Shown piece by piece: positions 1 through 19,912 of a DNA stretch of 20,000 bases. The position numbers were made by a program, and so were the translations under genes. This DNA is from an uncultured virus (IMG/VR IMGVR_UViG_3300008267_000055) (lineage: Duplodnaviria > Heunggongvirae > Uroviricota > Caudoviricetes), in the IMG/VR virus record IMGVR_UViG_3300008267_000055; one strand, 5' to 3'. Position 1 is the first letter of the stretch. Each line of letters begins with the position of its first letter. The notes beneath the pieces were generated by a model. The model saw nothing but the letters and a program-made list of their open reading frames with translations, did no database searches and had not been told where the DNA came from.

Positions 1-517
1 CTGCGTCCACTGCAGCCATAACTGCATTAACAGTCGAGCGGCTATGTCCGCGAGCGAACATAGAAGCTGCGATATCCATCCACGTATCCGGATTTTTAGG
101 AACAGGGCTAATAGCGATAGACATGACCTGCGCTTTAGTAACTCGCTTGCCTTTTCTGCCGCCGGGGAGGACACGCCCCTCGATGGAAAATCCCAGTGTG
201 CGACGGCCACCAGCTTCGGCCATTGCCTTCTGGGTGTCGTAAACGAGTTTTCCGAAGGGGCGATTCAGATAGAGCTGTCCGCTAACGCGGGTCGCAAGCT
301 TGCCGCTAGAGAGTCGAACCTGCTCGACCTTCTCAGGGTAGCCGGCGAGGCGCGCGATATCGACCGGGTGTTCGTACGTAAAAATGCCCTTGGTGAGACA
401 GAACGACCAGTCCAAGCCGGTCTGGTCGATCTCGGTAATCGGAGCCGACACCGTGATGTCGGCTGGAAGCCAAGCCAAGAAATCGCCTGAAGACTGAAGT
501 GCAACGTACGAAGACAT
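1..517 (-). CDS. Prohead (capsid maturation) serine protease, HK97/S78-like; 3' end lies outside the window
   Basis: Translated by hand from ATG at 517: MSSYVALQSSGDFLAWLPADITVSAPITEIDQTGLDWSFCLTKGIFTYEHPVDIARLAGYPEKV...LGFSIEGRV...SIAISPVPKNPDTW. The QxGLD, xEH (catalytic His), GYP, GFSIEG (catalytic Ser) and PxNPxT motifs are present, and the gene lies just downstream of the portal. Confidence 0.88.
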   Translation of the reverse strand, partial: MSSYVALQSSGDFLAWLPADITVSAPITEIDQTGLDWSFCLTKGIFTYEHPVDIARLAGYPEKVEQVRLSSGKLATRVSGQLYLNRPFGKLVYDTQKAMAEAGGRRTLGFSIEGRVLPGGRKGKRVTKAQVMSIAISPVPKNPDTWMDIAASMFARGHSRSTVNAVMAAVDA

Positions 518-562: not shown

Positions 563-2053
563 TCACGCAGGCTTTGTCAATGGTGGAAGTCTGCGACCAT
601 CGACAAAAGCCCCGACAGTATCAATGTCGAACTGCGGTGGAGCAACGTCGTTCTCCAAAATCTTCTGTGCAGCCTGTGAGAAGAACGCATTGAGCGGGAG
701 ATCTGCAATCGGGGTTGCAAGAGGTTCGAGACCACGCTCAACACGAAGCTCGTTCGGCGTTCGGTAGGTCGTAACCGCCGCCATGTCCATGTCATGCTTT
801 TCGCGCTCGTTGCTGGCGTCAAAGCCAGCGAACTCGAACTTGAGCTGAGGCCACGTCGGCTTGATGACGTAGTAGTCAATCCACGATTGGACAGCGCGCA
901 ACAGCGGACGAAGACCTCGCTCCTTGGACTGAAGGATTTTATCCATCGGGGAGGCGCTGATGAAATTCGACTTCGAACCTTCAGCACCGAAGACGTAGCC
1001 CATCTCCGATGGGTCGATCGCGTAAAGCGAGCAGGCGACCTTCAGGAGCCAGTTAATCCACTCAGCGAACTCCATCTCAGCGTTCGACTTACCGAGCGTG
1101 ACGGCCTCAAGCTCTTCCTGCAGCTGGTTGGACAGCTGAATAATCGGAATACGCTTGAAGTTACGACCACCCGCCATCGAGGTCTGAATCTCGCGCCGGA
1201 ACTCGTTAAACCGGTTCTGGTCCCAAGCAGACTTCAGGACGAGGGCCGTGTGGGCGTGAATACCGGTCGTGAAGTTGACTTGGTTGAAGGTCTGAGCGTT
1301 AACGAGACCAGTAATAATCGACGCTAGCTGCTCAAGCTCGGGATGCCCGTAGCCGGAGAACTTGATGTCAGACCGTGGGCGGCGGATACCCCAAGCCATG
1401 TTGCCTGGCTCGTAGTAGTTCACGATCTCTCCCGAGGTCATGACCTGAACGAAGCCCTCGCTAAAATCCCAACGACCGTACCGAGGAGCTGGCTCCCCGC
1501 CGTAAATCTCCTGAGTCGGGATAGCTCGGCGAATAGTTTTTGGATCGACTGGGATAAAGGCGTACGGCGTACCGTCCTTTTCCCGGATGATCTCAAAATT
1601 CACCTGGTCGTAGGTGAGCGTGTCCGGAATAATCACGCGAAGGAACTGCTCGAACCCGCCAGGGAGCCACTCCGCACCCGCTCGGCTGATGACCTCCGCC
1701 GCCTTTTCGATGGCGACGCGATCTTTTCGAAGCGGTAGAGACTGGCGCTTATCCATCCGGATTCGCCAGCCGATGTCGACCGGGTTCTCTTGGGGTCGCG
1801 CCCAGTCCGTGGCTTGGTTTGTTCGCGTCTGATGGATGCCTGCGATCTGCGGGACGCTCGCCATCTGCGACAGCATGTCGTAGGTGATGCTGAGTGTTCC
1901 GTAGTGGTAGTCCCCCGTAGACCCGGTACGGGCCATCAGGTGCGCGTCGTTGATAAAATCAGCGTTGGCGGATCGCGGGGGAGAAACCGCAACCCACCTA
2001 CGCCCGACCTTTTTCACCTCGGTGGAGGTGGGCTTGGTGGGTTGCTCTTTCAC
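563..2053 (-). CDS. Phage portal protein
   Basis: 496 aa with portal motifs typical of Herelleviridae-like portals: FLRVIIPDTLTYDQVNFEI, FIPVDPKTIR, GYGHPELE, EMEFAEWINWL..ACSLYAIDPSEMG, SKERGLRPLL, TPNELRVERGLEPL. Confidence 0.92.
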   Translation of the reverse strand: MKEQPTKPTSTEVKKVGRRWVAVSPPRSANADFINDAHLMARTGSTGDYHYGTLSITYDMLSQMASVPQIAGIHQTRTNQATDWARPQENPVDIGWRIRMDKRQSLPLRKDRVAIEKAAEVISRAGAEWLPGGFEQFLRVIIPDTLTYDQVNFEIIREKDGTPYAFIPVDPKTIRRAIPTQEIYGGEPAPRYGRWDFSEGFVQVMTSGEIVNYYEPGNMAWGIRRPRSDIKFSGYGHPELEQLASIITGLVNAQTFNQVNFTTGIHAHTALVLKSAWDQNRFNEFRREIQTSMAGGRNFKRIPIIQLSNQLQEELEAVTLGKSNAEMEFAEWINWLLKVACSLYAIDPSEMGYVFGAEGSKSNFISASPMDKILQSKERGLRPLLRAVQSWIDYYVIKPTWPQLKFEFAGFDASNEREKHDMDMAAVTTYRTPNELRVERGLEPLATPIADLPLNAFFSQAAQKILENDVAPPQFDIDTVGAFVDGRRLPPLTKPA

Positions 2054-4563
2054 TTGGAAAGCTCCTTCTGGAGGGCCTTGGAAAATCCAGCGCCGAGGTT
2101 CTTGGTCGCAGCGTGAACGGCTACCGCAACTTCAGCAGGAACGTCGTCCGAGGCCACCGCGTACAGCAGCTGTTCGGATTTCGAGTAGCTCATGTAGTGG
2201 CAGTAGGTCACAGCCTTCTGAAGGTTGGCCTTCAGCCTATCCTGCTGCCACGTCTCAAACGGCGAAACCATGGACTTGGCGGACTCAGAGGTACCGCGCA
2301 ACGCGATCTTGATCTTGCGAGCCTTAGCCTTGACGCGATCGATATCCGCAGTCGGAGCTCCTTCCTTCTTCATCTGCTGAATCTTCAGAAGATAATTGCG
2401 GAGCATCTTCTTGCTGGGCTTAGCTTCCTTGGGTGAGTTGGCAGGTCCGTCGCCCTTCTTGTCTGGCGCGTTCTTGTCGTCAGGCTTGCCCTTACCTTGA
2501 CCCATCTCATGCCAGCGCCCGCCGCGCTTCTCAACAATCGTACCGTCGGCGTAACGCGAGACAGTTCCTTCGGGAGCAGACTGAGGTCCACGAGTAACCC
2601 CAGCCTTAGATACACCCGCATGGAGTGCGTTAACCATGCCCTCGAAGTTATTTATAAGAGCCGCGCCCAGGGCCTCGACCACCGACATCGGCGGAAGCCC
2701 CCCTCGCACGCTCGCTAGCACCCCTTCGGCCAACACTTGCTGAACGCGGGGCTCGGACAAAAGCGTTCGGGGACTTGGAGACGTTTCCTGGATTTTTGAA
2801 GGCTCGGGGGAGGGGGAAACAGTCTTCGAGCTCTCCTCCGCAATCGTCGTCGTCGAGGTCGACTTTTCGATCGGGCTCGGGGAAGGGGTAGGAGAGGGCT
2901 CGTTCGAGGAGATCTTTTCCTCGCTGAGAGAGGTTACGCATTCTGGCTCCTTGACCGTGCTAGCGATCTGCTGAGTGATGCCTTTGATAATTTCCGGGGT
3001 GATGTCCTTCAGGTACTTGGAAGCCAAGTAGCTGCCGAGGGCCTCGGGGACCTCAATCGACTTGGAAGTCTTTTCGCGAGACTCCATCTGCTTCACGAGC
3101 TTGGCGGACCAAGACTTACCGGCGTTTCCACCCCAAAGCTGCCAAGCCACCCAAGCCGGGGAGGTCTTGTCGCCGAGTGTCCGCGAGCTGCTGCCGACCG
3201 AGTGGCGAGCAAACCACGCGTTCATCTTACGGGCCTTCTCGGGCGAGATTTTCTGACCAGCCGCAAGCTTGCTGGCCCAAGAAACGGTGGCTGCCACAAG
3301 GCCCTTACCGCCGTGGCCCTCCTCCTTGAGCTTCAGCCCAGCGCGGCACGCAGCGCGAACCCCAGCAGGAGGAGTAAAGTTTATACCGTCGTACGACTTC
3401 ATGATGTCTTGGTCGCCGTCTGTGATGTCCTTCTCGACATCATCGCCAGCGTCCTCGTCAGACCCAACGTCGCTATCACCATCGAGCGCGGCGAGCTCAG
3501 CATCAACGTCCATGTCTTCCCCTCGATTTTCGATGTAAGGCTCACGCTTCTTAAACGTATCTGGCCAGTATCTGTGACCGCCAGCCTCGTCTACCGCTGC
3601 GACGGACATGGCTACGGGCAGGTAGACCATTCCGTCCGGGGCTGCGCGGTGGCCGTAATTACGGGCCACAGCGTCCGAGACGTTCATGATGACTTGGTTC
3701 ACGGACGACATTCCCTGATGGAAGTCGACGTCGTCCATTTTCACGGGAGCGCTTTTAGACATGGCGTCAGCAGCCATCCGCATGTTCGCGTGAGCGCGGA
3801 TAACTCCGAAATTCACGTCCTGAAGTCCAACCGTAGCGAAGGCCTCGGTTGGCTCGGCGAAAGAGCCGCCGTTGGCAGCGTAATCCGCGAGGGCTGGGTC
3901 GTAAACGTTGGCGATGAAAGCTCCCTGTGAGGGGTGCTCCACCATGAAGTGAAAGCGGTTCGGGTGCATCGAGTCGCGCGTGTCGGCCTTCTCGATAAAG
4001 AAGTCGAGCGAGTGCGACTTCTTAACCTCTCCGCGATAGACCCGCATCTTGTCGGGCGTCAGGGACGTAAAGACGTTAGGGCGGTGACCCGTGACCATCG
4101 ACGCGTAAGCCGTAGCGGCGCCTGCGTCCTGCTTGTTCATGAGGCCTTCAAGAGTATCCATGGCCTTCATGATCTTGTCGTGATACTTACCACACTCCTT
4201 GTGAAGCGCGTATGCGCGCTGCGTGTGGAATGCGCGCGTGTAGGACTTCATCGTCTTCCCAGCGCTATTCTTCCACTTCAAGACTGGCTTGGTGTCGATG
4301 TCACCCTCAACGTCGATCTCGACGTGCTCAGGTGCGATCGACTCGTCTGGAACGTGGCCGTCAAGGTCGTACTGACCTTTCATTCGAGCCCAATGACTTG
4401 GCTTAGCGCCAAGGTCATCTGAGTTGCCGTCGCTGGTGGTTCGAAACTTCGACCGACCAGTGCTATCCCCGTCTTGAAGCTGTTTCCACCCAGAATCGAG
4501 CTTCTTCCAGACGGAGTTATCTGCGCGCTGGGACTCGGTTCCGATCGGTGCTCTCTTAGCCAT
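2050..4563 (-). CDS. Large multidomain, probably head-associated protein: APxGT repeat, Topo IB-like domain, acidic linker, AWxLWGG phage domain, S/P/T linker, second APxGT repeat
   Basis: 837-aa ORF whose stop overlaps the portal start. Domain motifs were read by eye (see findings). Confidence 0.8.
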   Translation of the reverse strand: MAKRAPIGTESQRADNSVWKKLDSGWKQLQDGDSTGRSKFRTTSDGNSDDLGAKPSHWARMKGQYDLDGHVPDESIAPEHVEIDVEGDIDTKPVLKWKNSAGKTMKSYTRAFHTQRAYALHKECGKYHDKIMKAMDTLEGLMNKQDAGAATAYASMVTGHRPNVFTSLTPDKMRVYRGEVKKSHSLDFFIEKADTRDSMHPNRFHFMVEHPSQGAFIANVYDPALADYAANGGSFAEPTEAFATVGLQDVNFGVIRAHANMRMAADAMSKSAPVKMDDVDFHQGMSSVNQVIMNVSDAVARNYGHRAAPDGMVYLPVAMSVAAVDEAGGHRYWPDTFKKREPYIENRGEDMDVDAELAALDGDSDVGSDEDAGDDVEKDITDGDQDIMKSYDGINFTPPAGVRAACRAGLKLKEEGHGGKGLVAATVSWASKLAAGQKISPEKARKMNAWFARHSVGSSSRTLGDKTSPAWVAWQLWGGNAGKSWSAKLVKQMESREKTSKSIEVPEALGSYLASKYLKDITPEIIKGITQQIASTVKEPECVTSLSEEKISSNEPSPTPSPSPIEKSTSTTTIAEESSKTVSPSPEPSKIQETSPSPRTLLSEPRVQQVLAEGVLASVRGGLPPMSVVEALGAALINNFEGMVNALHAGVSKAGVTRGPQSAPEGTVSRYADGTIVEKRGGRWHEMGQGKGKPDDKNAPDKKGDGPANSPKEAKPSKKMLRNYLLKIQQMKKEGAPTADIDRVKAKARKIKIALRGTSESAKSMVSPFETWQQDRLKANLQKAVTYCHYMSYSKSEQLLYAVASDDVPAEVAVAVHAATKNLGAGFSKALQKELSK

Positions 4564-4614: not shown

Positions 4615-5406
4615 TCAACCAGTTCGGTCTACCTTCTGAAAATCGAAAGCTGCCTTCAGAATGTTAGGCAGTCTAGATATTTTTAGGTCCTCTTCCAAGA
4701 GGACTTGCGACTCTCGCTCAACTACGACGAAAACATCTCCGCCAGACAGGGCTGTGATGGAGATGTAGAGCCTGCCGACGCCCCAAGTAGCGGTTACTGT
4801 CTCGCCCATGCAGGATATTTTCGGTTTTCGTATTTGAGGATGCTTGGATTTAAACGTTACGTGCGCGACTGAGCCGTGGGTGCGCCAGAAAGACAGCGCC
4901 AAGTTTCTTCGGTGCAGGGCCGCTTTTGACTTGGTCGTGTTTCGGATGACGATAGCGTCTTCTATAGACATCGGGCCTGGGTCTGGATGCTGGTTCCCCC
5001 AGATCAGGTCCTCTATCGACTCTTTCTGGTACTCGACAGCAGGAGGAGTCTCGTCGCCGTACCACCTAGAGACTGCAAGCTGAAAAACGCGCATAGCCTC
5101 GGAGGCTACTTTCTCATCCGAGAAGTCCGAGGCGTGGCTTCGGCCCATTTCTTTTTGTAGCCACCGCTTAGGATTTTTATTCAGGGCTTGAAGACTAAGG
5201 TCAGAACACACTTCTGGTAGAGGTTCGTACTTATCTAGCTCGGTAGTATTATTTATCTGCTTGTAGCAGATGTTACAGAGACCCCTGGCTCGATAAAAAA
5301 GCTTCGGAGGAGTACCTCCGCAGTATCTGCACTTAGGGCAGACCTGTGGCCACGGCCTTCCGCCAACATATTCTCCGCTTTTACGTGGCTTGCTTCTCCG
5401 TGACAT
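4615..5406 (-). CDS. Hypothetical protein with N-terminal Zn-finger-like motif
   Basis: 263 aa; contains CPKCRYC...ARGLCNICY and has its own predicted promoter. Confidence 0.65.
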   Translation of the reverse strand: MSRRSKPRKSGEYVGGRPWPQVCPKCRYCGGTPPKLFYRARGLCNICYKQINNTTELDKYEPLPEVCSDLSLQALNKNPKRWLQKEMGRSHASDFSDEKVASEAMRVFQLAVSRWYGDETPPAVEYQKESIEDLIWGNQHPDPGPMSIEDAIVIRNTTKSKAALHRRNLALSFWRTHGSVAHVTFKSKHPQIRKPKISCMGETVTATWGVGRLYISITALSGGDVFVVVERESQVLLEEDLKISRLPNILKAAFDFQKVDRTG

Positions 5407-5526: not shown

Positions 5527-6333
5527 ATGAAGCAACCAGACATGTTTCTGTGTCCGATCGACGATCTCATCCCCGATCCAACACAACCACGTCAGTTCTT
5601 CGACGAGGAAGAGCTGAAAGCCCTGACTGACAGCATTCGAGAGAAGGGCGTCCTCCTTCCTATTATTGTAAGGGAGCACCCTAGGAGCCCAGGTAAGCTT
5701 GAAATCGTTGCTGGAGAGCGCCGCTGGCGCGCTAGCAAGCGTGCAGCGCTAGATCACGTCCCAGTCATAAAGCGAGAGCTCTCAGACAAGGCTGCTTTCG
5801 AGATCGCGCTGATTGAAAATACCCAGCGGGCTAGCCTCAATCCTATTGAGGAGGCGCTCTCCTTCAAGCGGCTCTACGAAGAGCACAACATGCCGTACGT
5901 GGAGGTTGCCGAGGTCGTCGGTAAGTCTACGTCTTACGTTAGCAACACGCTTCGCTTGCTAAATCTTGAAGACGCCTACCAGCGCTTGGTTATTAATGGT
6001 GAGCTTAGCGCCAAGGGCGCTCGCGCGCTGCTAGCAGTTCCGAGCGGAACCTTGCGCGATGAGCTTGCGAACCTCATGCAGAAGGGTATGGGTCCTGCCG
6101 AAGCTGAGACCTGGGCTCGTGAGATGCAGCAACGGTCAACGGCTAGGGCAAGACCCTCTCGCCTGACTGGGCGAAAACCAAATCAACCACTTTTCGACCT
6201 CCTGCTCTCCAAGCTCAAAGAGAGGTATGGTACAGGGGTTGCCCTCGACACGAAAGCAAGGTCCGGATCTGTTTCTTTTGCTTTCAAGGATTTGCACGGT
6301 TTGTACTCTCTGTTTAAGGAGCTGACCAAGTGA
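5527..6333 (+). CDS. parB: ParB/Spo0J-family partition protein
   Basis: Contains QPRQFFDEEELKALTDSIREKGVLLPIIVR, the Arg patch VAGERRWRA, ALIENTQRASLNPIEEA and an HTH (VAEVVGKSTSYVSNTLRLL). Confidence 0.93.
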   Translation: MKQPDMFLCPIDDLIPDPTQPRQFFDEEELKALTDSIREKGVLLPIIVREHPRSPGKLEIVAGERRWRASKRAALDHVPVIKRELSDKAAFEIALIENTQRASLNPIEEALSFKRLYEEHNMPYVEVAEVVGKSTSYVSNTLRLLNLEDAYQRLVINGELSAKGARALLAVPSGTLRDELANLMQKGMGPAEAETWAREMQQRSTARARPSRLTGRKPNQPLFDLLLSKLKERYGTGVALDTKARSGSVSFAFKDLHGLYSLFKELTK

Positions 6334-7474: not shown

Positions 7475-8048
7475 CGACGTTGCAGCGATGCTGCCCGAGA
7501 TGAAGGAGCACCTCGCCAGCCTGCAGCCCTACGAGCGCGCCATCAGCCTGGACAACTGGGCTGCCATGGTCGGTCGCACGTATAGCCAGCTGCGCGTGGC
7601 GATGAAGTACCTCGATAAGACTTTCTTGAAGGCCTACACCGACCACCGGCGTGAGTACTATCGCTCGATGGAAGCTGAGCTCAAGGCGCTACCTGACTTC
7701 ACGATCAAGTACACACAGTCCGTGATGGACAAGTACGGGATCACACGCAAGGACGTGCAGCGGGTGAGGCTGCGCCTCAACCTTAAATGCGCTGCTAAGT
7801 ACTCTCGTGGAGCCGAGCGCGTGCACCCATTCCTGCAGCCTGGCTTGTCCCTGATGGACGTAGCCGAGGCTGCGGGGATGTACCTTTATCAGGTTCAGGG
7901 CTTGCTCAACCGTGGGCATCTGGACAAATACGCAGAGTTCGGCCACGCCAAGCGCCTGTGTCGGAACGGACGCAACCAGCGCGTCGTTGTGGTCGCTCGC
8001 CTCAAAGGAACGGAGAAGTCTCATGATCGAAGCAAGAGTCGTCGCTGA
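7449..8048 (+). CDS. Hypothetical, possibly HTH DNA-binding protein (paralog B)
   Basis: TTG start with AAGGAG 7 nt upstream; paralog of 6875-7474. Confidence 0.7.
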   Translation: MGAVKINHDDVAAMLPEMKEHLASLQPYERAISLDNWAAMVGRTYSQLRVAMKYLDKTFLKAYTDHRREYYRSMEAELKALPDFTIKYTQSVMDKYGITRKDVQRVRLRLNLKCAAKYSRGAERVHPFLQPGLSLMDVAEAAGMYLYQVQGLLNRGHLDKYAEFGHAKRLCRNGRNQRVVVVARLKGTEKSHDRSKSRR

Positions 8049-8871
8049 TAGCACATTCTATGGCCGCCGGCTGATCACGCTCTCGTGTGACTACCCGCGC
8101 TTCATCCATCCGCAGGTCATGACCTACGGCATGATCCGGAAGAGCACGTCGAGCAGCCGCGCCATCCCAGTGAAGCGGCAGCTCGAACTCTCCGCCGAGT
8201 ACGCCTACATCCCTGACGCGTTCTCTAAGAACAAGTCAGGGATGGCTGCCACGGAAGAGCTGAGCGACACGGACTACGCCCACGCCCGCGCCCTGGTGGA
8301 GTCTCACCTCAACTTCACGCGTAACATCGTGGAAAAGCTCGCAGACCTTGGCGTCCACAAGCAGCACGCCAACCGCTACCTCGAGCCCTACCTGATGACG
8401 CGCTGCATGATGACCGGCGCCTACGAAGCCTTCGAGCACCTCATCCAACAGCGCAAGCACGCCAACCTGCATGGTGAGGTGCAGCCTGAGATGTACGAGC
8501 TGGCCTGCAAGATGGACGAATCCATTAAAGCCTCCGAGTCTCAGATCCGTAAATTTCACGTCCCGTATTTTGATGGTGAAAAGCCTACGTACGAAGACGC
8601 CCTTTACGGCATCGCACGCGCTGCGCGGGACAGCTACATGCGCGAGGACGTGAGCTCTGAGTTTATGTCGCGTCTAGAGGCCCTGTGGAACGAAGGCCAC
8701 CTTGGGCCCTTTGAGCACGTAGCCTATTTTGAGTCCGTCGGATGCTACGCGGGTCCCTACATTATTCCGGCAGCTACGTCGGACGGGTCTGACGAAGTCA
8801 TGGCTGAGGACCTTTACGGATGGCGCACAGCTCGCCACATCGGACTTGAGAATCTGAAGGAGCTTTTCTGA
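8023..8871 (+). CDS. thyX: FAD-dependent thymidylate synthase-like protein (phage Thy1/ThyX family), divergent
   Basis: MIEARVVADS...YPRFIH...SSSRAIP, LGVHKQHANRYLEPY, VQPEM, HLGPFEHVA. GGAG lies upstream of ATG 8023. Confidence 0.8.
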   Translation: MIEARVVADSTFYGRRLITLSCDYPRFIHPQVMTYGMIRKSTSSSRAIPVKRQLELSAEYAYIPDAFSKNKSGMAATEELSDTDYAHARALVESHLNFTRNIVEKLADLGVHKQHANRYLEPYLMTRCMMTGAYEAFEHLIQQRKHANLHGEVQPEMYELACKMDESIKASESQIRKFHVPYFDGEKPTYEDALYGIARAARDSYMREDVSSEFMSRLEALWNEGHLGPFEHVAYFESVGCYAGPYIIPAATSDGSDEVMAEDLYGWRTARHIGLENLKELF

Positions 8872-9326
8872 TGCCGTACTTCTACATGAAGCAGCACCGA
8901 AATCCGTATTCGGACTATGAATTCCAGGATGCCTACCGGACCGGTACGACCGCCGCGCCGAGTACGACTCCTCCGGTCGAATATCCTCACCCGCAGGACG
9001 AGCGCGCCCCTAAATTCGTGTCTCGCATGGAAGGGGAGGGGCGTAAGTTCGATCAGGGAAAGCCTGATTTTACGCTGCTGCCGTGGGATTCCTTGGCTGA
9101 AGTCGTAAAAGTGCTTCAGTACGGCTGCGAAAAGTACGAGCGGGACAACTGGAAGCACGTCCCGGACGCTTTTCAGCGTTACGAGGCTGCAGGACTGCGT
9201 CACCGGGTGGCCAGGTTGAACGGCGAAGCGGTCGACCCTGAGTCAGGGCTCTCCCATCTGGCGCACGAGGCGTGTTGTCTTCTTTTCCAGCTCTGGCTCG
9301 AGCAGCAGGAAAAATCGACATCCTGA
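8871..9326 (+). CDS. dATP/dGTP diphosphohydrolase domain protein (former DUF5664)
   Basis: GRKFDQGKPDFTLLP...VLQYGCEKYERDNWK...LRH...DPESGLSHLAH. Confidence 0.88.
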   Translation: MPYFYMKQHRNPYSDYEFQDAYRTGTTAAPSTTPPVEYPHPQDERAPKFVSRMEGEGRKFDQGKPDFTLLPWDSLAEVVKVLQYGCEKYERDNWKHVPDAFQRYEAAGLRHRVARLNGEAVDPESGLSHLAHEACCLLFQLWLEQQEKSTS

Positions 9327-10488: not shown

Positions 10489-10956
10489 ATGGAACTGGAC
10501 CTCGATATCGACGCCGGCGGCATGCGCGACATTTCCGACGAGCTTGCTCGGTGCCTCGCGGACACCTTTGTCGTTTACATGAAGACCCTCGCTTTCCACT
10601 GGAACGTCGAAGGACCTAGCTTTCCTCAGCTGCACACCCTTTTTCAGGGACAGTACGAGACGCTGGCCGGGTCTATCGATCTGGTGGCCGAGCGTATCCG
10701 GGCCTTGGGTGAGATGGCCCCATGCTCCATGCGTGACCTGATCGAAATGGCGTCCATCTCGGAACAAGAGGGAGTTCCGGACGCAAACTCCATGGTCAAA
10801 ATCCTGAAGGACGACCACGAGACCATCGCACGCAACCTGCGGGCGGTTATCAGGGTTGCGCAGGAAGAGTCCGACGAGGCCACCGCTAATCTTCTTGCGG
10901 GGTTGCTGGAAGGCCACGAAAAAATGGCGTGGATGCTGCGGGCAACTGCTGGTTGA
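10489..10956 (+). CDS. dps: Dps-family (ferritin-like) DNA-protection protein
   Basis: YMKTLAFHWNVEGPSFPQLHTLF...IDLVAERIRALG...HEKMAWMLRA; the ferroxidase H/H/D/E residues are present; AGGAGG SD. Confidence 0.95.
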   Translation: MELDLDIDAGGMRDISDELARCLADTFVVYMKTLAFHWNVEGPSFPQLHTLFQGQYETLAGSIDLVAERIRALGEMAPCSMRDLIEMASISEQEGVPDANSMVKILKDDHETIARNLRAVIRVAQEESDEATANLLAGLLEGHEKMAWMLRATAG

Positions 10957-10997: not shown

Positions 10998-11351
10998 GTG
11001 ATGAAGCAGCGCAATGTTTATAGCCGGGCTTGGGAACGCTACGAGGCTCTTCTGGAACACCTTGAGTGGTTCTTGGAGAACAATCCCGAGGTCGAGTGGA
11101 ACGCGATGGAGCTGGTTGACGTGCTCGGTACGGACTACAACACTTGGCGGGCCATGGTCCGTTGGTGCCGCGAGCACATCACCCACGTCCCTTGGTTTGG
11201 ATACAGACCGCCAAAAGGTACCGCCCGAAGCGGTACTTATTTTTACCGGTCAGTGGTGTCTCCGAGAGAGTTGGCGGGGCACTCTAAAGAGTGGCAAGCA
11301 GGGTTCCTAGCAGGAATCGAATACGCGAAAGCCGGAGTGGCGAAAAGGTAA
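10998..11351 (+). CDS. Hypothetical protein; 3' end overlaps the tRNA
   Basis: 117 aa with a GGAGG SD downstream of a good promoter. Confidence 0.65.
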   Translation: MMKQRNVYSRAWERYEALLEHLEWFLENNPEVEWNAMELVDVLGTDYNTWRAMVRWCREHITHVPWFGYRPPKGTARSGTYFYRSVVSPRELAGHSKEWQAGFLAGIEYAKAGVAKR

Positions 11352-11413
11352 CCGCAGGGGACTTAAAATCCCTCGCCCTGTGGGGCTTGCGGGTTCGAAT
11401 CCCGCCTCCGGCA
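11331..11413 (+). tRNA. tRNA-Leu(TAA), CCA not encoded
   Basis: Acceptor GCCGGAG/CTCCGGC plus discriminator A; anticodon arm GGGGA-CTTAAAA-TCCCT; long variable arm GCCC-TGTG-GGGC; T arm GCGGG-TTCGAAT-CCCGC. Confidence 0.93.
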
Positions 11414-11456
11414 CGAAGCGTTTACGCCCTGTAAGTAGGCGGGTTAGATCACCCGC

Positions 11457-12578
11457 ATGAATAAGTTCAGAGAAGCACTCACTGACGCTTATCTTGCCAA
11501 GCGCCCCTCGTACGCCAGGTGCCTAGGGCGTCTTGGCAAACGCGCGCCGGAACTCTTGAACGAGTTCGACCGGAACGCCTACGAGACGCTGCTCTCGGAC
11601 ATCCGTCGGTTGGACGGCCTCCTGAAAGAGGCGGCCGTCGACACGGAAAATTACGAGGTCGAGCGGTACACCGTCAACTCTTGGTCCAAGGGGAACTTCC
11701 AGGTCAAGGCGACCCTGCGCGCCAAGGGGAAGGTCTTCAAGATCCCAGATTACGAGCCGCCGCTTTTGGATTTATCCGTAGAGGCTGGTTCAGGGATGAC
11801 AGCGCTCTGCATCCCGGACATCCACTTTGGATTTTTGTGCGAAACCAAGCTCAACGGAGAAATACCGGAGCTGGAATGGAAGACCATCCACGACGAAAAA
11901 GCCGTGGCGGTCGTTTTAGAGGTCGCCCGGCGGTACCAGCCCGAGAAAATCGTGATCTTGGGCGATTTATTGGACCTGCCTGCGCTGTCGCGGTGGGACG
12001 TCGAGCCAAAACACCGCCACCAGACCCTCACGGCGGTAAAAGCGGCGCACGCTTTTCTGAAAAAGCTGCGGGTCGCGTGCCCGGGGTCGAAAATCTTTTT
12101 GCTGGAAGGCAACCACGAGCGGCGGTTGCGGGACTACTTGGCAAAAAATGCGCCGGAGCTGCTGGGGGCGACGAGCGTCCCGGAGCTTTTGGGCTTGGGG
12201 GTGTTGGAAATTACCTACGTCGGGCCCTACGGGACCCGGCTTCCCTTGGAAAAAGGGATTTTCGCCACCCACGGCCATTTAATCGGGCGAAAAGGCGGGG
12301 AGTCGGCCGCAAAAATGCTGGGGGAATACCACCTCTCGACGATTTTCGGGCACACCCACCGCTTGGAGTTGGCGTACCACACCCACTACGACGAGCAGAA
12401 TTTAGGGGGAACGGTATTTTCGATGGGGTGCGGAACTCTGGCCAAATTAGACGGGTCGGTGCCGGGGTCGCAGCACCCAAATTGGCAGCAAGGCTTTGGG
12501 GTGCTCTGGGGCGGGGCCCCTGCTATTTATTTAATCGAGAACGGCCGGTGTCGGATGGAAGGGATTTGGATATCCTGA
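11457..12578 (+). CDS. Calcineurin-like metallophosphoesterase
   Basis: All five motifs are present: PDIH, GDLLD, GNHE, HGH, GHTH. Confidence 0.9.
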   Translation: MNKFREALTDAYLAKRPSYARCLGRLGKRAPELLNEFDRNAYETLLSDIRRLDGLLKEAAVDTENYEVERYTVNSWSKGNFQVKATLRAKGKVFKIPDYEPPLLDLSVEAGSGMTALCIPDIHFGFLCETKLNGEIPELEWKTIHDEKAVAVVLEVARRYQPEKIVILGDLLDLPALSRWDVEPKHRHQTLTAVKAAHAFLKKLRVACPGSKIFLLEGNHERRLRDYLAKNAPELLGATSVPELLGLGVLEITYVGPYGTRLPLEKGIFATHGHLIGRKGGESAAKMLGEYHLSTIFGHTHRLELAYHTHYDEQNLGGTVFSMGCGTLAKLDGSVPGSQHPNWQQGFGVLWGGAPAIYLIENGRCRMEGIWIS

Positions 12579-14836: not shown

Positions 14837-15685
14837 GTTCGTTCGTTCGTCCGTTCACTCGTTCGCCAGCTTGGCAGCTTGCCAGCTCGACGCAGTAGAA
14901 CGCGCGCGCGCGCGCGCTCGCATGCGTGCGTGCGTGCGTGCGTGTGCGCGCGTCAACGAGCTTCGACCTCGTTCGCGTGCGCGCAAGAACCTTGCAAGAT
15001 CAAGACCTTGCAGCACAAGCGCGTCGCGTTCGGAACGCCGTCCAGGGCGGACTACGACGTGACGTAGGGGGTCTTGCCCAGGGGGCGGTTGCTAACAGTC
15101 GCGATCCTCGCGACATTCTGAAATACGAAGATCTCGAAAATCGCGCGCGGCGCGCTTCGCGCGCCAACCGAGCGCGCCGGGCCCAGGGGGCCCGGCGGCC
15201 GCGCACTGACGCTCAGTGGTACCAGGAGTACCGCTGGGTGCGCGGCGCGACCGCTCGCTGATTCCTGCCCGCTGCTCTGTGGTAGTTCGTTGGCTAGCTT
15301 TCTAAACTGTGCCTATGAACAAAGTGAATTACGAACAATTCCAATGCGCGCGCACCGCGAGGTCGCGCTGCTCTCCAACTACGAAGGGAGGGTGGGGCCC
15401 CGTAAGCTCACGTTAGATAGAGCTATCTATTGCGGTGAGTTTATTTCTTGAGTGTTGCTAGTAGGAAGAGATGCGTTGCTTCGCGTACTGTCGTAGGTGT
15501 TCGCTGCAGAATCGTAAGTGGGGGTCCAGACATCCTGAAACGCGCCTATTTCCACAGCGGGTACCAGGTCCCCCTCGCCCCCCGCCCTAAGGGAGATATT
15601 GCATGAGTTGTGGAACATGATGAAAATGCAACAATTCAAAAATACCCGCTGAAGGAGGGTTTACAAAATAACTATCAGGTAGACA

Positions 15686-15768
15686 GGGGGGGATGGGTCG
15701 AGGAGGGGGTGGTTGGGGTGGCCTGGGGTAGGGGGAGAGGGTAGCTTGGTGTGTGTGTGTGTGTGTGT
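15686..15768 (+). repeat. G-tract cluster followed by a (GT)10 microsatellite
   Basis: Seven G-runs of 3 nt or more in 15686-15741; (GT)10 at 15749-15768. Confidence 0.85.
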
Positions 15769-15801
15769 CCTTCAATGTATTCTCTAGAAAGGAGTAGGAA
15801 G

Positions 15802-15990
15802 ATGGCAGTCATGGGAAATACGTACAAGGTTGAACTGAAGAATGGCCGTGGATCGGTCATTGGTATGCGGCCGAATGGGATCGAGTTCGAGTGGCTGGTG
15901 ATTCCGAAGGAGCTGGTTCAGAAGTTCATGAACGGAGAGATGGACGAGAAGGAAGTGATTCAGAGAACGCGTTGGCCTGAGTGGGTGTGA
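15802..15990 (+). CDS. Small hypothetical protein
   Basis: AAAGGAGTAGGAAG-ATG leader shared with later genes; 62 aa. Confidence 0.75.
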   Translation: MAVMGNTYKVELKNGRGSVIGMRPNGIEFEWLVIPKELVQKFMNGEMDEKEVIQRTRWPEWV

Positions 15991-16080
15991 GGAAGAAATA
16001 ATAAGTCGAGCTCATCACACGGTGTGGTGGGCTCGGCTTATGTGTCGGGTTCGAGAAGACAGCCTGAAAGGAGTAGGAAG

Positions 16081-16434
16081 ATGAAGGTCGGAAAGGTTGA
16101 GTGGGAAATGCTGGATGGAATGGTTCGGGAGGAGATGGAGGAGAGCAAGTGGGCTGAGAACGAGAAGAGTTACGACCTGGCTTTGGAGTTGTTCAAGAAC
16201 ATTATCTGGGCTCGGGAAATGATCGAGCACATGGAGAACAAGGTTCAGGGTAGGGAGAAGATCGAGCTGAAGCAGGCGAAGCTTGCGTACCAGCTGGTGG
16301 ATATCGGGCTTCAGAGAAGTCAGATCACGAAGGCGGAGGAGATGAGCTTCCAAGGAACTCTGAAGATCATCGGGATTCAGGGTGACATGGTTCGTCGGGG
16401 GGTTTGGGAAAATCCTCCGGTGATCTTGATCTAA
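16081..16434 (+). CDS. Hypothetical protein
   Basis: CTGAAAGGAGTAGGAAG-ATG leader; 117 aa. Confidence 0.8.
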   Translation: MKVGKVEWEMLDGMVREEMEESKWAENEKSYDLALELFKNIIWAREMIEHMENKVQGREKIELKQAKLAYQLVDIGLQRSQITKAEEMSFQGTLKIIGIQGDMVRRGVWENPPVILI

Positions 16435-16512
16435 ATAATAAAGAAATAATCAATCGGGTCCATCACGCGGTGTGGTGGGCTCGATTGTGTCTGCGTAGTT
16501 GAGGAGGTTGGT

Positions 16513-16779
16513 ATGTTTCATCAGTGGCTGGTGGTCGAGGCGATCAAGAACATTCTGTCGGTGTGCGGGCAGGACATGGTCCACACGGCCGTGGTTGAGG
16601 AGTGGGACGGTACGCAGGATATCCTCAAGGTCGAGGGCCTTGGGAACGTTGACTGCAGCGTTGCCGAGGAGGTGGTGCTGGACATCGTGTACATGGATGG
16701 GCAGCGCCAGACGATGAGGGCGGCAGAGCTCAGAACGCTGGTGAAGGGTTGGCTGGGAGCCGACATCGAAGTGTTCTAA
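16513..16779 (+). CDS. Hypothetical protein (VEEWDG motif)
   Basis: GAGGAGG SD; 88 aa. Confidence 0.75.
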   Translation: MFHQWLVVEAIKNILSVCGQDMVHTAVVEEWDGTQDILKVEGLGNVDCSVAEEVVLDIVYMDGQRQTMRAAELRTLVKGWLGADIEVF

Positions 16780-16864
16780 AAAATAATCAGCCGGGTCCAT
16801 CACGCGGTGTGGTGGGCTCGGCTTTTTTTATTAGGGGCTAGAGACAGACTGAAAGGAGTAGGAA

Positions 16865-17173
16865 ATGAAGATCGAAATCGAAATCATCGAGCGTTGCGAA
16901 GAAGGAAAATACGATCAGATCCTCGGGAGGATTGGAGATATCCTCTGGGAGGGTGAGCTTGATGCCGAGGAGGCGAAGCGCATCAGCTACGGGTCGACTG
17001 CTGGGAAGTTCAGAATCATCGGGGATGGCATCGTCAAGGATTACGACGACGAGTTCGATTTTGGTGAGGAGAACGAGGACGATTACGAAGAAGCGGTGGC
17101 GGTTGAGGAGTGGGACGGCTGCCAGTGGGTGTGCGTCGTAACGAACAAGTGGATCACCGACGTGGTGAAGTGA
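16865..17173 (+). CDS. Acidic hypothetical protein (VEEWDG motif)
   Basis: CTGAAAGGAGTAGGAA-ATG leader; 102 aa, D/E-rich. Confidence 0.8.
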   Translation: MKIEIEIIERCEEGKYDQILGRIGDILWEGELDAEEAKRISYGSTAGKFRIIGDGIVKDYDDEFDFGEENEDDYEEAVAVEEWDGCQWVCVVTNKWITDVVK

Positions 17174-17259
17174 AATAAGGAATAATCAGTCGGGCTCATC
17201 ACGGTGATGGGCTCGGCTATTTATCGGGTCAGAAAAAACAATCTGAAAGGAGTAGGGAA

Positions 17260-17484
17260 ATGAGCAAGGAAGTTTTCATCAGCATCAAGGACGGAGAGGC
17301 CCTGGACGAGCTCTGCAAGGAGTTCAACCTGGAGAAGCACCAGGTGGTGGTTTGTAATTATGAGACATGGTCGGGTGGACCGTACCTGAAGAGACTGAAG
17401 GACTGTGACCTTCTGGTGGCTGGTGGGTTGAAGACTCCATGGCACGAGGAATTCTACCGTCTGGAGATTTTGAACTGGGACTGA
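17260..17484 (+). CDS. Hypothetical protein, TWSGGP/TPWHEEF family
   Basis: Shared leader; paralog of 14087-14305. Confidence 0.85.
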   Translation: MSKEVFISIKDGEALDELCKEFNLEKHQVVVCNYETWSGGPYLKRLKDCDLLVAGGLKTPWHEEFYRLEILNWD

Positions 17485-17563
17485 GAGCAACCTAGAAAAA
17501 TAAATCGCCCGGCTTCGAAAGGGGTCGGGCGGTTTGGTTTTATAAATAGTCAGGAGAGACAGT

Positions 17564-17815
17564 ATGAAAGAAGGTGTTTTCGAGATCTTTCTGGCGTTCG
17601 TGATTTTTGGAATTTGTCTGGGTGTACCAGCAATGGTCGGGAGCTGGGCTGAAGGAGAAAGAAGAAGAGAAGAACTGACAGAGCAGAAAAATAGTCTGGA
17701 AGAAGAACTGAAAGTTCTGAGCCAGAAGGTGGACGGAAGAAGAGTGGGTCCTTTGCTTAAGATCCTTGATCTGGAAAATGAGATTAATCGACTGGAAGCG
17801 GAGATGAGAAGATGA
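17564..17815 (+). CDS. Small protein with N-terminal TM segment and coiled coil
   Basis: AGGAG SD; hydrophobic residues about 5-26, then an E/K/R-rich region. Confidence 0.75.
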   Translation: MKEGVFEIFLAFVIFGICLGVPAMVGSWAEGERRREELTEQKNSLEEELKVLSQKVDGRRVGPLLKILDLENEINRLEAEMRR

Positions 17816-17904
17816 CTGGCATGTTGCTTGGGTACGTTGGATTTATTTTTGTTATGCCGATGGGTTTGGCTTTTGTCTTTAATCGTAAGGGAGGTGTGAG
17901 ATGA
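17812..17904 (+). CDS. Small hydrophobic peptide (30 aa)
   Basis: ATGA overlaps at both ends; MTGMLLGYVGFIFVMPMGLAFVFNRKGGVR*. Confidence 0.6.
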   Translation: MTGMLLGYVGFIFVMPMGLAFVFNRKGGVR

Positions 17905-18113
17905 GAATGCCGTTGATGTTTGTGAAAGAGAATAAGTGCCCTGAGTGTGGGGAAACCGTCAGGACCCATGTGGATGACGATGGGTTTGGACAGTACTGTG
18001 GAAATAAGAAGGAGTGTGGGTGGAACCAGGGAAATGCCTATGGAGAGAGGTGGCTGAGAAAGAACAATAAGGAAAGGATGGTCTGGGAAAGCATGTGGAA
18101 GAGGGGAGATTAA
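17901..18113 (+). CDS. Small Zn-ribbon-like protein
   Basis: GGAGG SD; CPEC...CGNKKEC. Confidence 0.75.
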   Translation: MRMPLMFVKENKCPECGETVRTHVDDDGFGQYCGNKKECGWNQGNAYGERWLRKNNKERMVWESMWKRGD

Positions 18114-18131
18114 ATAATAAGGAGAAACAAT

Positions 18132-18269
18132 CTGAAAAGTCTTAAAGAAAAAATAGAAGAGCTGAGGAGGGCAGCTGAGAAAATCCCTCAGGAAGAAAGG
18201 GAGCGTCGGGCAAGAGAAGAGGCCCGGCTGGTAATAAATGATCAGGAACAGAAGAGGAGGCTGAGATGA
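18132..18269 (+). CDS. Putative CTG-initiated coiled-coil peptide (45 aa)
   Basis: AAGGAG-7 nt-CTG; LKSLKEKIEELRRAAEKIPQEERERRAREEARLVINDQEQKRRLR*; the stop overlaps the next ATG. Confidence 0.45.
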   Translation: MKSLKEKIEELRRAAEKIPQEERERRAREEARLVINDQEQKRRLR

Positions 18270-18541
18270 GGAACTGTGACTGCTGTTACGACTGGGAAAC
18301 AGACATGGTTATTGATGACCGAGAGGCTTGGGAGATTGAGGAGGTTGAGATGCATAAGGAAGAGGAAAAGATCTGGGCACGTGCGAAAGCAGAGGGTCTG
18401 ACTTTTAATCAGGCAAAGGAAGTGATGGATGAGGAGCGCACAAAGGAACTGGTGGATGCCTATGAAAAAGAGATAGCGGAAATCATGAGGAAGGAAAACG
18501 TGAGCCGAGAGAGAGCGGAAGACATCTACATCCCGTTCTGA
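18266..18541 (+). CDS. Acidic hypothetical protein
   Basis: GAGGAGG SD; N-terminal CDCC. Confidence 0.75.
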   Translation: MRNCDCCYDWETDMVIDDREAWEIEEVEMHKEEEKIWARAKAEGLTFNQAKEVMDEERTKELVDAYEKEIAEIMRKENVSRERAEDIYIPF

Positions 18542-18631
18542 TGGGTAAGGAATAAATGGTCTGGCTCAGAAATGGGTCAGGCCATTTATTTCGTCTAGAA
18601 AAAACAATCTGAAAAAATAAAGGAGGAAAAT

Positions 18632-18961
18632 ATGGACGATCTGGATATTTGCGGGTGCTCGACATGTGATTTTTGCCGGGCTGGTGTGGATGACGATGAC
18701 GGTACGGAATATGTGGAGGGAGAGATGGAAAGCCAGGAGGATATGATGGGCCGGATTACGGAAGGAGATATCAGGGAGTGGGAGAAGAAGGAGAACGAGG
18801 ATATTGAGAAGGAGGCCAGAAAAGAATTGGAGAAGAAGGAGAACGAGGATATTGAGAAGGAGGCCAGAAAAGAATTCGTCAGGGACAATGGGCGGGAGCC
18901 GAGTGTGGAAGAGCTGGCGAAGAAGGGGTTGGAGGTTTGGTACCGTCGCTGGGTTGTCTGA
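18632..18961 (+). CDS. Acidic hypothetical protein with a 16-aa tandem duplication
   Basis: AAGGAGG SD; CGCSTCDFC; 48-bp direct repeat at 18781-18828 and 18829-18876. Confidence 0.78.
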   Translation: MDDLDICGCSTCDFCRAGVDDDDGTEYVEGEMESQEDMMGRITEGDIREWEKKENEDIEKEARKELEKKENEDIEKEARKEFVRDNGREPSVEELAKKGLEVWYRRWVV

Positions 18962-18996
18962 AAATAAACCTTGAGGGAATAAATAAGGAGGTAGGT

Positions 18997-19179
18997 ATGT
19001 GGGATTTTGATTTTGAGTTCGAGGTCCAGGCTAGCGACGCTTGGAGAAGAAGAAGAATCGAGCGGAAGCTGGAGAAGGTGGAGCGGGTGATCCGGGACGA
19101 GTTCGAGCTGGGACGCGAGGAGGCTTGCCCGGTCTTGATGAGAAGAGCCCTTGAGCTGCGGGTTCAACTGGAAGGCTGA
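18997..19179 (+). CDS. Small hypothetical protein
   Basis: TAAGGAGGT SD before ATG 18997; 60 aa. Confidence 0.72.
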   Translation: MWDFDFEFEVQASDAWRRRRIERKLEKVERVIRDEFELGREEACPVLMRRALELRVQLEG

Positions 19180-19242
19180 GAAATACCGAGTAGGGCAGGT
19201 AGGCCCGAAAGGGTCTGCCTGTTCTTTCTATCAGGAGGAAAT

Positions 19243-19428
19243 ATGTTCGTGGTTGAGAAGCTGGGTGAGGATGTGTGGGTGGCCGTGGCTTGGGAAGAGG
19301 GTGGTGAGATTTTCCGGATGGTAGGGAAAAGAGAAGACGTCAACGAAATGAGCTGTGTGGTTCGGAACGAGGCTGAGTTCGCAACCAAGGAAGAGGCCGA
19401 AGAGGCTCTGAAGGAAATGGAGGTCTGA
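19243..19428 (+). CDS. Small acidic hypothetical protein
   Basis: AGGAGG SD; 61 aa. Confidence 0.72.
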   Translation: MFVVEKLGEDVWVAVAWEEGGEIFRMVGKREDVNEMSCVVRNEAEFATKEEAEEALKEMEV

Positions 19429-19429
19429 G

Positions 19430-19651
19430 ATGGTGACCGTGGCTTTTATCGAAAATACCGAGGCGACCGTGAAGGTCATGCGAGACGACAACGAATGGTT
19501 CTTCCTGAAGGACACTGGAGGATTTATCGTCCTCAAGGATCAGGGAAAGAAAATCATCTGCTCGAGGTGGGATGACTGCCATCGTCAGGTCGAAATCACG
19601 AACGCTCAGATGATGTGGGCTAAGAAGTGGGTCAGAAGGCTCGGCGCCTGA
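19430..19651 (+). CDS. Small hypothetical protein
   Basis: GGAGGT SD; 73 aa. Confidence 0.72.
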   Translation: MVTVAFIENTEATVKVMRDDNEWFFLKDTGGFIVLKDQGKKIICSRWDDCHRQVEITNAQMMWAKKWVRRLGA

Positions 19652-19694
19652 TTTATTATTTCTTCCCCCAGACTCCCTGAAAATTAATTAAATC

Positions 19695-19722
19695 GCCCCA
19701 GAAAATCATCTGGGGCTTTTTT
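19695..19722 (+). terminator. Intrinsic terminator
   Basis: GCCCCAGA-AAATCA-TCTGGGGC followed by TTTTTT. Confidence 0.7.
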
Positions 19723-19759
19723 CTACCCTGAACCAGGCTCCAAGGGGCTCGGAGACACC

Positions 19760-19873
19760 ATGACATCTACATTAATTGCGTATCTGGGCTTTTTCGGCGG
19801 GACAGTTGGCTTGGCGAGTGGGCTCCATGGATTGGTTCGTTCTTTTGGTAAGGGTGGTTTTGGGAAAGTTTAA
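19760..19873 (+). CDS. Small hydrophobic peptide (37 aa)
   Basis: GGAG SD; MTSTLIAYLGFFGGTVGLASGLHGLVRSFGKGGFGKV*; N-terminus resembles the 17812 peptide. Confidence 0.55.
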   Translation: MTSTLIAYLGFFGGTVGLASGLHGLVRSFGKGGFGKV

Positions 19874-19912
19874 GGTAAGGGTTTTTGATTTTTTGACTTA
19901 CGGAGGTTTGAG

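Follow-up and report, generated by a model that had tools for sequence, protein, structure and literature searches.

A highly diverged type IB topoisomerase fold, with mosaic loss of its catalytic residues, in a head-operon protein of uncultured myoviruses

The window analysed here, a 20,000-nucleotide stretch of DNA of an uncultured virus (IMG/VR record IMGVR_UViG_3300008267_000055), encodes directly ahead of its portal gene an 837-amino-acid (aa) protein, P0001, of which aa 55-345 are supported, by structural modelling and by profile comparison, as having a genuine but highly diverged fold of the type IB topoisomerases (TopIBs). Enzymes of this type are usually attributed to eukaryotes, to poxviruses and other large viruses of eukaryotes, to some bacteria and to a few jumbo phages. 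Neither Pfam nor BLAST detects the family to which P0001 belongs, its TopIB-like domain forms part of a head-operon protein, and the catalytic residues have been lost in a mosaic fashion. The enzyme fold and this kind of phage protein are both known already; the strongly diverged, partly decayed version described here is new. The favoured interpretation, given about an even chance of being correct, is that the module was exapted and serves, largely without catalysis, as a DNA clamp at the head of a modular "polyvalent" protein that uncultured myoviruses encode and that is probably associated with the virion.

Modelling of aa 55-345 with AlphaFold2 (AF2), from a family alignment of 29 rows (A2), gave a mean predicted local distance difference test score (pLDDT) of 89.7 and a predicted template modelling score (pTM) of 0.85, with pLDDT falling below 50 in a single stretch, model residues 127-139 (aa 181-193). 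The modelled structure is the two-lobed clamp of a TopIB, possessing an N-terminal beta domain and a helical catalytic domain with a beta-hairpin. On comparison of the model with the PDB using Foldseek, ranks 1-20 were all occupied by TopIBs (variola, human, Deinococcus, Leishmania and others), the best match having an E-value of 1.3e-4 and a query TM-score (TMq) of 0.50, and comparison with BFVD brought in TopIBs of viruses, among them phages Motura (TMq 0.53) and PaBG. VIA-align, which is independent of Foldseek, was run against 48,161 representative chains and here also TopIBs took the top five places (Z 12.4-9.3). The best of these was Deinococcus TopIB (3m4a, Z 12.4), with 184 residues aligned at a root mean square deviation of 3.9 Å, while variola TopIB (2h7f, Z 10.2) could be aligned over 231 residues across both lobes. 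A Z of at least 5 was reached by 28 chains, all of this superfamily and every one a TopIB, tyrosine recombinase, protelomerase or repressor with that fold; the chain ranked next scores Z 3.9. An identity as a protelomerase, integrase or tyrosine recombinase was rejected, as recombinases and TelA/TelK reach at most Z 9.0 against 12.4 for TopIB and the Tyr varies among family members. A feature search of the Atlas with aa 55-345 gave no usable match.

No family could be assigned to aa 60-335 by Pfam (E-values up to 10), NCBIfam, PHROGs, phmmer against the PDB or a profile search of the PDB, and PF01028, the TopIB family, was not matched even at an E-value of 10. Homology to the PF01028 superfamily was detected by profile-profile comparison with hhalign, for which a set of 24 bacterial TopIB genes was drawn from 29 positives among 201 genomes (PF01028). 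Of this set 18 were aligned (A4), a wrong-frame ORF (open reading frame; L083) and five other TopIB loci being left out, and the alignment displays the motifs RxGN, GKSG, FRTW and LGNT...Y, with an N-to-Y spacing of 9. The family alignment A2 matched these 18 TopIBs with a probability of 96.35% (E-value 1.5e-9, 210 columns), and a shallower, domain-only alignment of 11 rows (A5) with 94.3% (E-value 1e-7, 214 columns), while A5 against five TopIBs of cultured phages gave 78.3% (E-value 1.8e-5, 98 columns). Together with the structural matches, this places the observed resemblance to TopIB far beyond chance.

An earlier note, made from the letters of the window, had proposed such a domain at 3559-4386, which on the minus strand corresponds to aa 60-335 of the 837-aa ORF, and every motif and residue number quoted in it was found in its place. 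These are LKWKNSAGKTMKSYT (aa 95-109), TGHRPN (aa 158-163, including R161), the K-S and K-A sites (aa 181-184 and 191-194), FMVEHP (aa 206-211), DPALA (aa 222-226), IRAH (aa 255-258, including R256) and VARNYGHRAAPDGMVYLP (aa 299-316, including H305 and Y314 with a spacing of 9). The fold that it predicted is recovered in both parts, the N-terminal beta domain and the catalytic domain, by the AF2 model, Foldseek and VIA-align, and the profile and structure comparisons that it had recommended as a check both led to TopIB. Its residue mapping, including the altered Lys strand, is essentially right. R256, H305 and Y314 fall opposite the second catalytic Arg, the His/Asn and the Tyr in all three hhalign comparisons, and the His-to-Tyr spacing agrees with that from (H/N) to Y in the 18 bacterial TopIBs (N274, Y283), the pattern H-x8-Y being present just once in the 837 residues. 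The catalytic Lys, which the note took to be replaced, is indeed matched by P211, with the invariant H210 alongside, in both of the comparisons with bacterial TopIBs, which cover that region. With the first Arg (Arg1) the assignment to R161 is upheld by the deeper profile, whereas the shallower profile picked R174, in a low-confidence stretch. By homology with TopIB, the R/R/H/Y residues would be expected to lie close together in the folded module. The segment with the two K-S/K-A sites, which had also been singled out, coincides with the model's sole low-confidence loop and is an insertion hot spot in relatives.

Two further features emerge from these alignments. With respect to TopIB, aa 178-201 are an insertion and take the place of the active-site segment GNxxYxxxNxSYGLTTL. 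In the N-terminal lobe, K106-x-Y108...F112-H113...R116 aligns to the N-domain/hinge motif KQYxYH..W(R)..R of TopIB, a motif which contacts DNA. At the positions of the catalytic pentad Arg-Lys-Arg-His/Asn-Tyr the window protein thus has R161, P211, R256, H305 and Y314, and the full pentad is not present.

The family was assembled in several searches. A word-indexed search found 13 proteins at E-values <= 0.001 among 1225 candidates, and an exhaustive phmmer search over 1.84 billion cluster representatives gave 25 matches, 23 of them at E-values <= 1e-10; P0034 and P0035 (E-values 2-4e-4, one being a DUF11/DUF7507 repeat protein) were dropped as spurious. A profile search for longer proteins gave 29, all listed as unnamed or as "hypothetical protein" and without Pfam domains; near-identical or truncated sequences (P0005, P0006, P0008, P0013) were left out of A2. 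Truncated entries aside, the members are 692-1227 aa in length and the TopIB-like domain begins approximately 50-65 residues from the N-terminus in all but P0028, which has an inorganic pyrophosphatase (InPase) domain in front of it. The family is encoded by 12 IMG/VR contigs, while tblastn against 50,697 deposited phage records found no member, and neither did a scan of genome contigs with a single peptide pattern (15 candidates). A stand-alone form was sought among proteins of 150-746 aa and none was found except for one truncated entry, in a word-limited search that also missed the 692-aa P0014. A scan of viral contigs with the bacterial TopIB alignment gave 21 loci, none of which is a head-module TopIB; most of them lie at contig ends or in giant-virus records, and those at contig ends are probably host genes at provirus borders.

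Conservation in the 29 aligned sequences of the family is uneven across the former active site. Position 314 is Tyr in 19, Phe in eight and His in two, P0023 being one of the latter. R161 is kept as Arg in 16 members and R174 in 13, and the Lys position, 211, has Lys in just one, the distant member P0020, the natural variants there being Lys, Arg, Pro or Ala. R256 is Arg in 27/29 and H305 is His in 27/29 (Asn and Ser once each). The tetrad R161/R256/H305/Y314 occurs in eight members belonging to three lineages, including all six of the window's clade, and the full pentad occurs in none. In the maximum-likelihood tree calculated for the domain at least six Tyr/Phe changes are required, the well-supported branches alone forcing six, with one change more for His, and the nearest sister clade (P0010-12), which is 53-56% identical and has the same architecture, possesses Phe at 314. 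Other positions are fixed, with H113, H210, D266 and K270 each found in 29/29, as are G159 and G304, and Arg or Lys at R116 throughout; Y108, R256, H258 (26/29), H160 (26/29) and H305 are near-invariant. D266 and K270 are specific to the family and lie one helical turn apart.

As the fold, the gene position and these other residues remain fixed while the catalytic positions are lost lineage by lineage, selection on the chemistry would seem to have been relaxed with binding maintained. DNA binding would have been kept, to judge from the retention of both the N-domain contact residues and the phosphate-binding R256 and H305. The decay of catalysis that is apparent from sequence and model makes an enzymatic, strand-transfer interpretation doubtful, and the DNA-strand-transfer function put forward in the earlier note does not fit well with a family in which ten of 29 members have Phe or His for the Tyr, R161 is found in little more than half and the pentad in none.

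The loop following the first Arg (aa 181-193) provides a second line of evidence. In six of 28 homologues, an insert of 120-145 aa is located between aa 185 and 190, this being a ferritin-like (Dps-like) domain in P0018, P0025 and P0027 and an InPase domain in P0029 and P0032, while no family was assigned to the insert of P0023. Among the 22 homologues scanned, InPase domains were identified in six and ferritin in three. The window itself has a stand-alone Dps-like ferritin gene, and its product shares 36% identity (E-value 7e-17) with the ferritin domain that P0025 carries as an insert within its TopIB-like module; that the ferritin stands alone here and is nested in relatives, by fusion or fission, argues for a shared function. 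InPase domains are typical of those phage polyvalent proteins that are predicted to be packaged, according to the available part of the published survey (PMC5512222). Nested inserts of this kind, Dps-like or pyrophosphatase, suggest that a "DNA care kit" is delivered together with the genome.

In the favoured reading, the N-terminal module would have descended from a TopIB and kept its two-lobed, DNA-encircling fold, canonical catalysis having been abandoned with the general-acid Lys gone, the loop after the first Arg now a disordered insertion site and the Tyr nucleophile dispensable family-wide. Given the partial loss of the catalytic kit, the module most likely grips DNA rather than cutting it, and it could encircle the duplex non-covalently by means of R256, H305, the N-domain residues K106-x-Y108...H113...R116 and the aromatic residue at 314. 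The protein would be made together with the portal, protease and capsid proteins and would probably enter the capsid with the DNA, perhaps by way of its conserved C-terminal domain. There it might hold, protect or escort the genome and carry accessory modules along, which appear to be swappable, with a DUF module in this phage and a pyrophosphatase or Dps-like ferritin in relatives.

A number of points weigh against this reading. The gene lies upstream of the portal gene, whereas MuF-type cargo genes lie downstream, and no MuF domain (PF04233) was matched in Pfam at E-values <= 0.1 with the whole protein or <= 10 with three parts of it. The family is known from metagenomes only, the tblastn search having found no cultured relative. 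In the window protein itself four of the five catalytic residues are present at canonical spacing, conservation of R256 and H305 is 93%, and the invariant H210 adjoins the Lys position; because of these features its module may have a weak or altered activity. Finally, a short N-terminal tag found in this family has a second copy which is weak in the window's clade (E-values 0.15-0.43; domain E-value 12 in the window protein).

Taken further, the same residues raise the alternative that in the window's clade the module remains a functional type IB strand-transferase, in which H210 replaces Lys as the general acid, and that this enzyme, carried with the head or made beside it, would relax, nick or join DNA at packaging or entry. 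This is considered rather unlikely. The alignment of R161, R256, H305 and Y314 to the catalytic Arg, Arg, His/Asn and Tyr, the spacing of 9 shared with the 18 bacterial TopIBs and the presence of the tetrad in the whole of the window's clade would all fit with such an enzyme, but the Lys is absent from 28 of 29 members and the TopIB active-site segment that follows the first Arg has been replaced by a disordered, insertion-prone loop. It is true that the invariant H210 sits at the hairpin tip, where Lys is expected, and that distant P0020 has Lys at 211; the Tyr, however, was replaced at least 6-7 times independently, with Phe in a sister clade of the same architecture, and the failure to match PF01028 even at an E-value of 10 also speaks against an intact enzyme. 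An intermediate possibility, itself an unlikely one, is that the family represents a transition from enzyme to clamp within capsids. The window's clade would then perform a slow, His-assisted and possibly single-turnover cleavage, tethering or capping the packaged genome covalently as a counterpart of the poxvirus virion topoisomerase, with the Phe/His314 sisters being inert clamps which carry the Dps-like or pyrophosphatase modules.

With regard to its genomic context, the TGA stop codon of the TopIB-like ORF overlaps the GTG start of the portal gene (GTGA), and the gene order on the minus strand is a 263-aa zinc-ribbon gene, the TopIB-like ORF, portal and prohead protease. This order is kept in all four annotated relatives (L003, L004, L008, L009), and a phrog_752 major head protein follows the protease in the two relatives whose ORF there was scanned. 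The description of P0001 as a probable head protein is a label drawn from context, the gene being located upstream of the portal in a head-gene operon. The zinc-ribbon gene, which has no Pfam or PHROG family match, holds the same position in six of six loci aligned, with its Cys residues invariant, and its product may be a partner of the TopIB-like protein. Divergent to this operon is a ParB gene; when used as a query against genome contigs it matched only chromosomal ParBs, at 34-49% identity.

These neighbours bear on whether the protein is virion cargo at all. It could instead be an intracellular DNA-handling factor, such as a packaging helper acting with the zinc-ribbon partner and ParB, and this is thought improbable. 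The region upstream of the portal is a frequent place for packaging genes, the zinc-ribbon partner is conserved and ParB is encoded next door, and no MuF or known capsid-targeting domain was found in the protein; against this, the gene is tightly coupled to that of the portal, a conventional large terminase is encoded elsewhere in a 101-kb relative, so that the protein is not the packaging motor, and its long disordered linkers and exchangeable enzyme modules correspond to the way in which polyvalent cargo proteins are built, as described in the part of the survey available (PMC5512222). Least probable by some distance is that the TopIB active site was remodelled into a pocket lined by histidines (H160, H210, H258, H305, H113) for metal or for Tyr-independent DNA or nucleotide chemistry, for even with H210 and H113 in 29/29, H305 in 27/29 and H160 and H258 in 26/29 at or near former catalytic positions, His at 314 in two members and metal enzymes or metal-binding proteins (InPase, ferritin) as associated modules, the proposal is purely inferential, no known metal motif or family match was found, and H113 aligns to a basic DNA-contact position of TopIB and not to the active site.

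The 101-kb relative (G002, L094) is a myovirus, with a tail sheath, a baseplate wedge and its own DNA polymerase, helicases, primase and SbcCD, and its large terminase (TerL; phrog_38, E-value 6e-56) sits far from the portal. No terminase family was matched by the TopIB-like protein of the window in Pfam or PHROGs, and PF03237 was not found in five partial relatives. The notion that the TopIB-like protein substitutes for a terminase was rejected because of the separate TerL of the 101-kb relative. The ORF for this terminase (L094:13311-16886, minus strand, 1192 aa) has its terminase matches split between aa 32-257 and aa 730-1178, a division which suggests an insertion of approximately 470 aa, for example a putative intein or nested domain.

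The remainder of the 837-aa protein is modular, and the coordinates of its parts and of the neighbouring genes are given in Table 1. The N-terminal tag is confined to this family among 1858 stop-to-stop segments of 14 sources and is therefore not a general label on many proteins of these phages. When its hidden Markov model was used, a second copy was found in most of 28 members, with E-values down to 2.9e-10 in distant ones, while BLASTP of aa 1-40 against aa 347-837 of the window protein gave no match. The middle module (aa 394-501) is very strongly conserved and has no Pfam match; its nearest Atlas clusters are stand-alone viral hypothetical proteins of approximately 125 aa. Weak Atlas leads for this module were DUF3721, DUF6321 and DUF5824. 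It is placed differently in the L009 homologue, and its slot is where the InPase sits in relatives.

A second model, of aa 347-837, has a pLDDT of 70.3. It consists of a helical module (aa ~391-536), within which the phrog_2859 match falls, a unit of three helices (aa 601-656) and a three-stranded sheet (aa 668-686) followed by a Lys-rich disordered stretch, before the C-terminal domain. Foldseek against the PDB with this model as one query, aa 716-837 included, gave no match at E-values <= 0.001. The C-terminal domain (aa 716-837) is conserved family-wide and, as modelled, is a candidate anchoring module.

Table 1. Features of the TopIB-like protein and associated genes in the window
Feature	Coordinates	Strand	Basis or remark
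TopIB-like head-module protein P0001, multi-domain ORF of 837 aa	2050..4563	minus	stop codon included
N-terminal tag of ~29 aa (aa 5-33)	4465..4551	minus	consensus PxGTxxxRADGSVWxKxxxGxWxQxxDG, conserved in family N-termini
TopIB-like two-domain module (aa 55-345)	3529..4401	minus	AF2, Foldseek, VIA-align, hhalign 96%
Disordered variable loop with the K-S/K-A sites (aa 181-193)	3985..4023	minus	pLDDT < 50
Acidic low-confidence linker (aa 346-390)	3394..3528	minus	pLDDT 40-50
Conserved helical middle module (aa 394-501)	3061..3384	minus	phrog_2859 (unknown function), E-value 1.5e-14
Ser/Pro/Thr-rich disordered linker (aa 537-595)	2779..2955	minus	pLDDT 36-44
Second, weaker tag copy (aa 664-692)	2488..2574	minus	regex match; modelled three-stranded sheet
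C-terminal coiled-coil hairpin and helical domain (aa 716-837)	2053..2418	minus	pLDDT 88-96
Portal gene, directly downstream of the TopIB-like ORF	563..2053	minus	PF04860, E-value 8.6e-11; phrog_12, E-value 1.6e-30
Prohead (head maturation) protease gene, truncated at the edge of the window	2..517	minus	phrog_1028, E-value 6.6e-12
Zinc-ribbon gene (263 aa), directly upstream of the TopIB-like ORF	4615..5406	minus	CPxCR...C motif
ParB gene	5527..6333		divergent to the TopIB-like operon
Stand-alone Dps-like ferritin gene	10489..10956	plus	PF00210, E-value 3.1e-28

The window has a number of other genes and features that lie apart from the head-gene operon. The N-terminal domain of a MazZ-like dATP/dGTP diphosphohydrolase is encoded at 8871-9326 on the plus strand (PF18909, E-value 1.5e-31), adjoining a ThyX-like gene at 7912-8871, also plus (PF02511, E-value 4.5e-8), and as judged from these family matches the pair hints at nucleotide-pool editing or a modified base. 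The idea of a Z-genome, prompted by the MazZ-like gene, is unsupported, as no PurZ-type PF00709 was found in five partial relatives or in the window ORFs scanned. A gene for a tRNA-Leu (anticodon TAA) is located at 11331-11414 (plus) and is the sole tRNA or Rfam match in the window. It is followed at 11457-12578 (plus) by a calcineurin-like metallophosphoesterase (PF00149, E-value 1e-5), which may be a nuclease of the SbcD/Mre11 type, given that the 101-kb relative encodes SbcC- and SbcD-like proteins. The segment from 15000 to 20000 has a strong positive GC skew (0.2-0.5), a lower G+C content (47-56%) and many small plus-strand ORFs with no family matches, and it resembles a block of early genes; within it, at 18781-18876, a 48-bp sequence is exactly duplicated in tandem.

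Should the clamp reading be true, a TopIB would join the few DNA enzymes that have been converted to scaffolds for DNA binding, and it would be a concrete candidate for a protein by which phage DNA is held or escorted within the capsid. The natural variants of the family (position 314 with Tyr, Phe or His; position 211 with Lys, Arg, Pro or Ala; the first Arg present or absent) are also a ready-made experiment for distinguishing residues needed for binding from those needed for chemistry in TopIB.

Among known systems, the closest in structure is Deinococcus radiodurans TopIB (3m4a/2f4q, PF01028), the best match, with which the module shares the positions of both Arg residues, the His/Asn and the Tyr. 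Identity to bacterial TopIBs is just ~11-12%, and in contrast to these the module lacks the catalytic Lys, has a disordered loop for the GNxxY...SYGLTTL segment, does not conserve the Tyr and first Arg within its family and is the N-terminal module of a phage head-operon protein of 692-1227 aa. With variola TopIB (2h7f/2h7g/3igc) both lobes align over 226-231 residues (Z 10.2-10.6), model residues 5-277 being matched to chain residues 28-291. The poxvirus enzyme is likewise encoded by a virus and is carried in the virion core; unlike the degenerate, fused module described here, it possesses the full pentad and is a stand-alone protein of approximately 314 aa. The repressors MrpR/YopR of SPbeta and SroF of phi3T (8a0a, 8bj6, 9rd5/9rgl) are among the structural matches (Z 5.8-7.2) and are not known to be catalytically active, and they offer a precedent for use of the superfamily fold in DNA binding. 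They differ in having lower similarity than TopIB, no match to the TopIB-type N-terminal lobe and a role as regulators rather than as head-operon proteins.

In phages, a specific topoisomerase I is described for some jumbo phages, namely Lu11, PaBG, Motura and NCTB, in the part of the report available (PMC7824862). These jumbo-phage enzymes have a phage-encoded TopIB fold and give the same mapping of R256, H305 and Y314 by hhalign. They differ from the present family in keeping the R, K, R, H and Y motifs, in being encoded mostly among non-structural genes and in being detectable by tblastn with bacterial TopIB (12 records), whereas this family was found in none of the 50,697 records.

The remaining comparison is with the phage polyvalent proteins. 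Full-text searches of the literature found no paper with a title or abstract on TopIB in a phage capsid. In the available text of the survey of polyvalent proteins, domains of the type IB topoisomerase, tyrosine recombinase or integrase kind are not mentioned, and "topoisomerase" occurs in it solely in the reference list, in a Toprim paper on type IA and II enzymes (PMC5512222). The TopIB-like proteins depart from the polyvalent proteins as described in that text in that they have no MuF domain and their gene precedes that of the portal. They resemble them in being large and multi-modular, in domain shuffling, in having InPase modules and in their portal and head-gene neighbourhood, which was found here and in four of four annotated relatives (PMC5512222, available part). 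The shuffling of unrelated modules is seen in the InPase domains of 6/22 and the ferritin domains of 3/22 homologues, in the nested inserts of 6/28 and in the relocation of the phrog_2859 module in L009.

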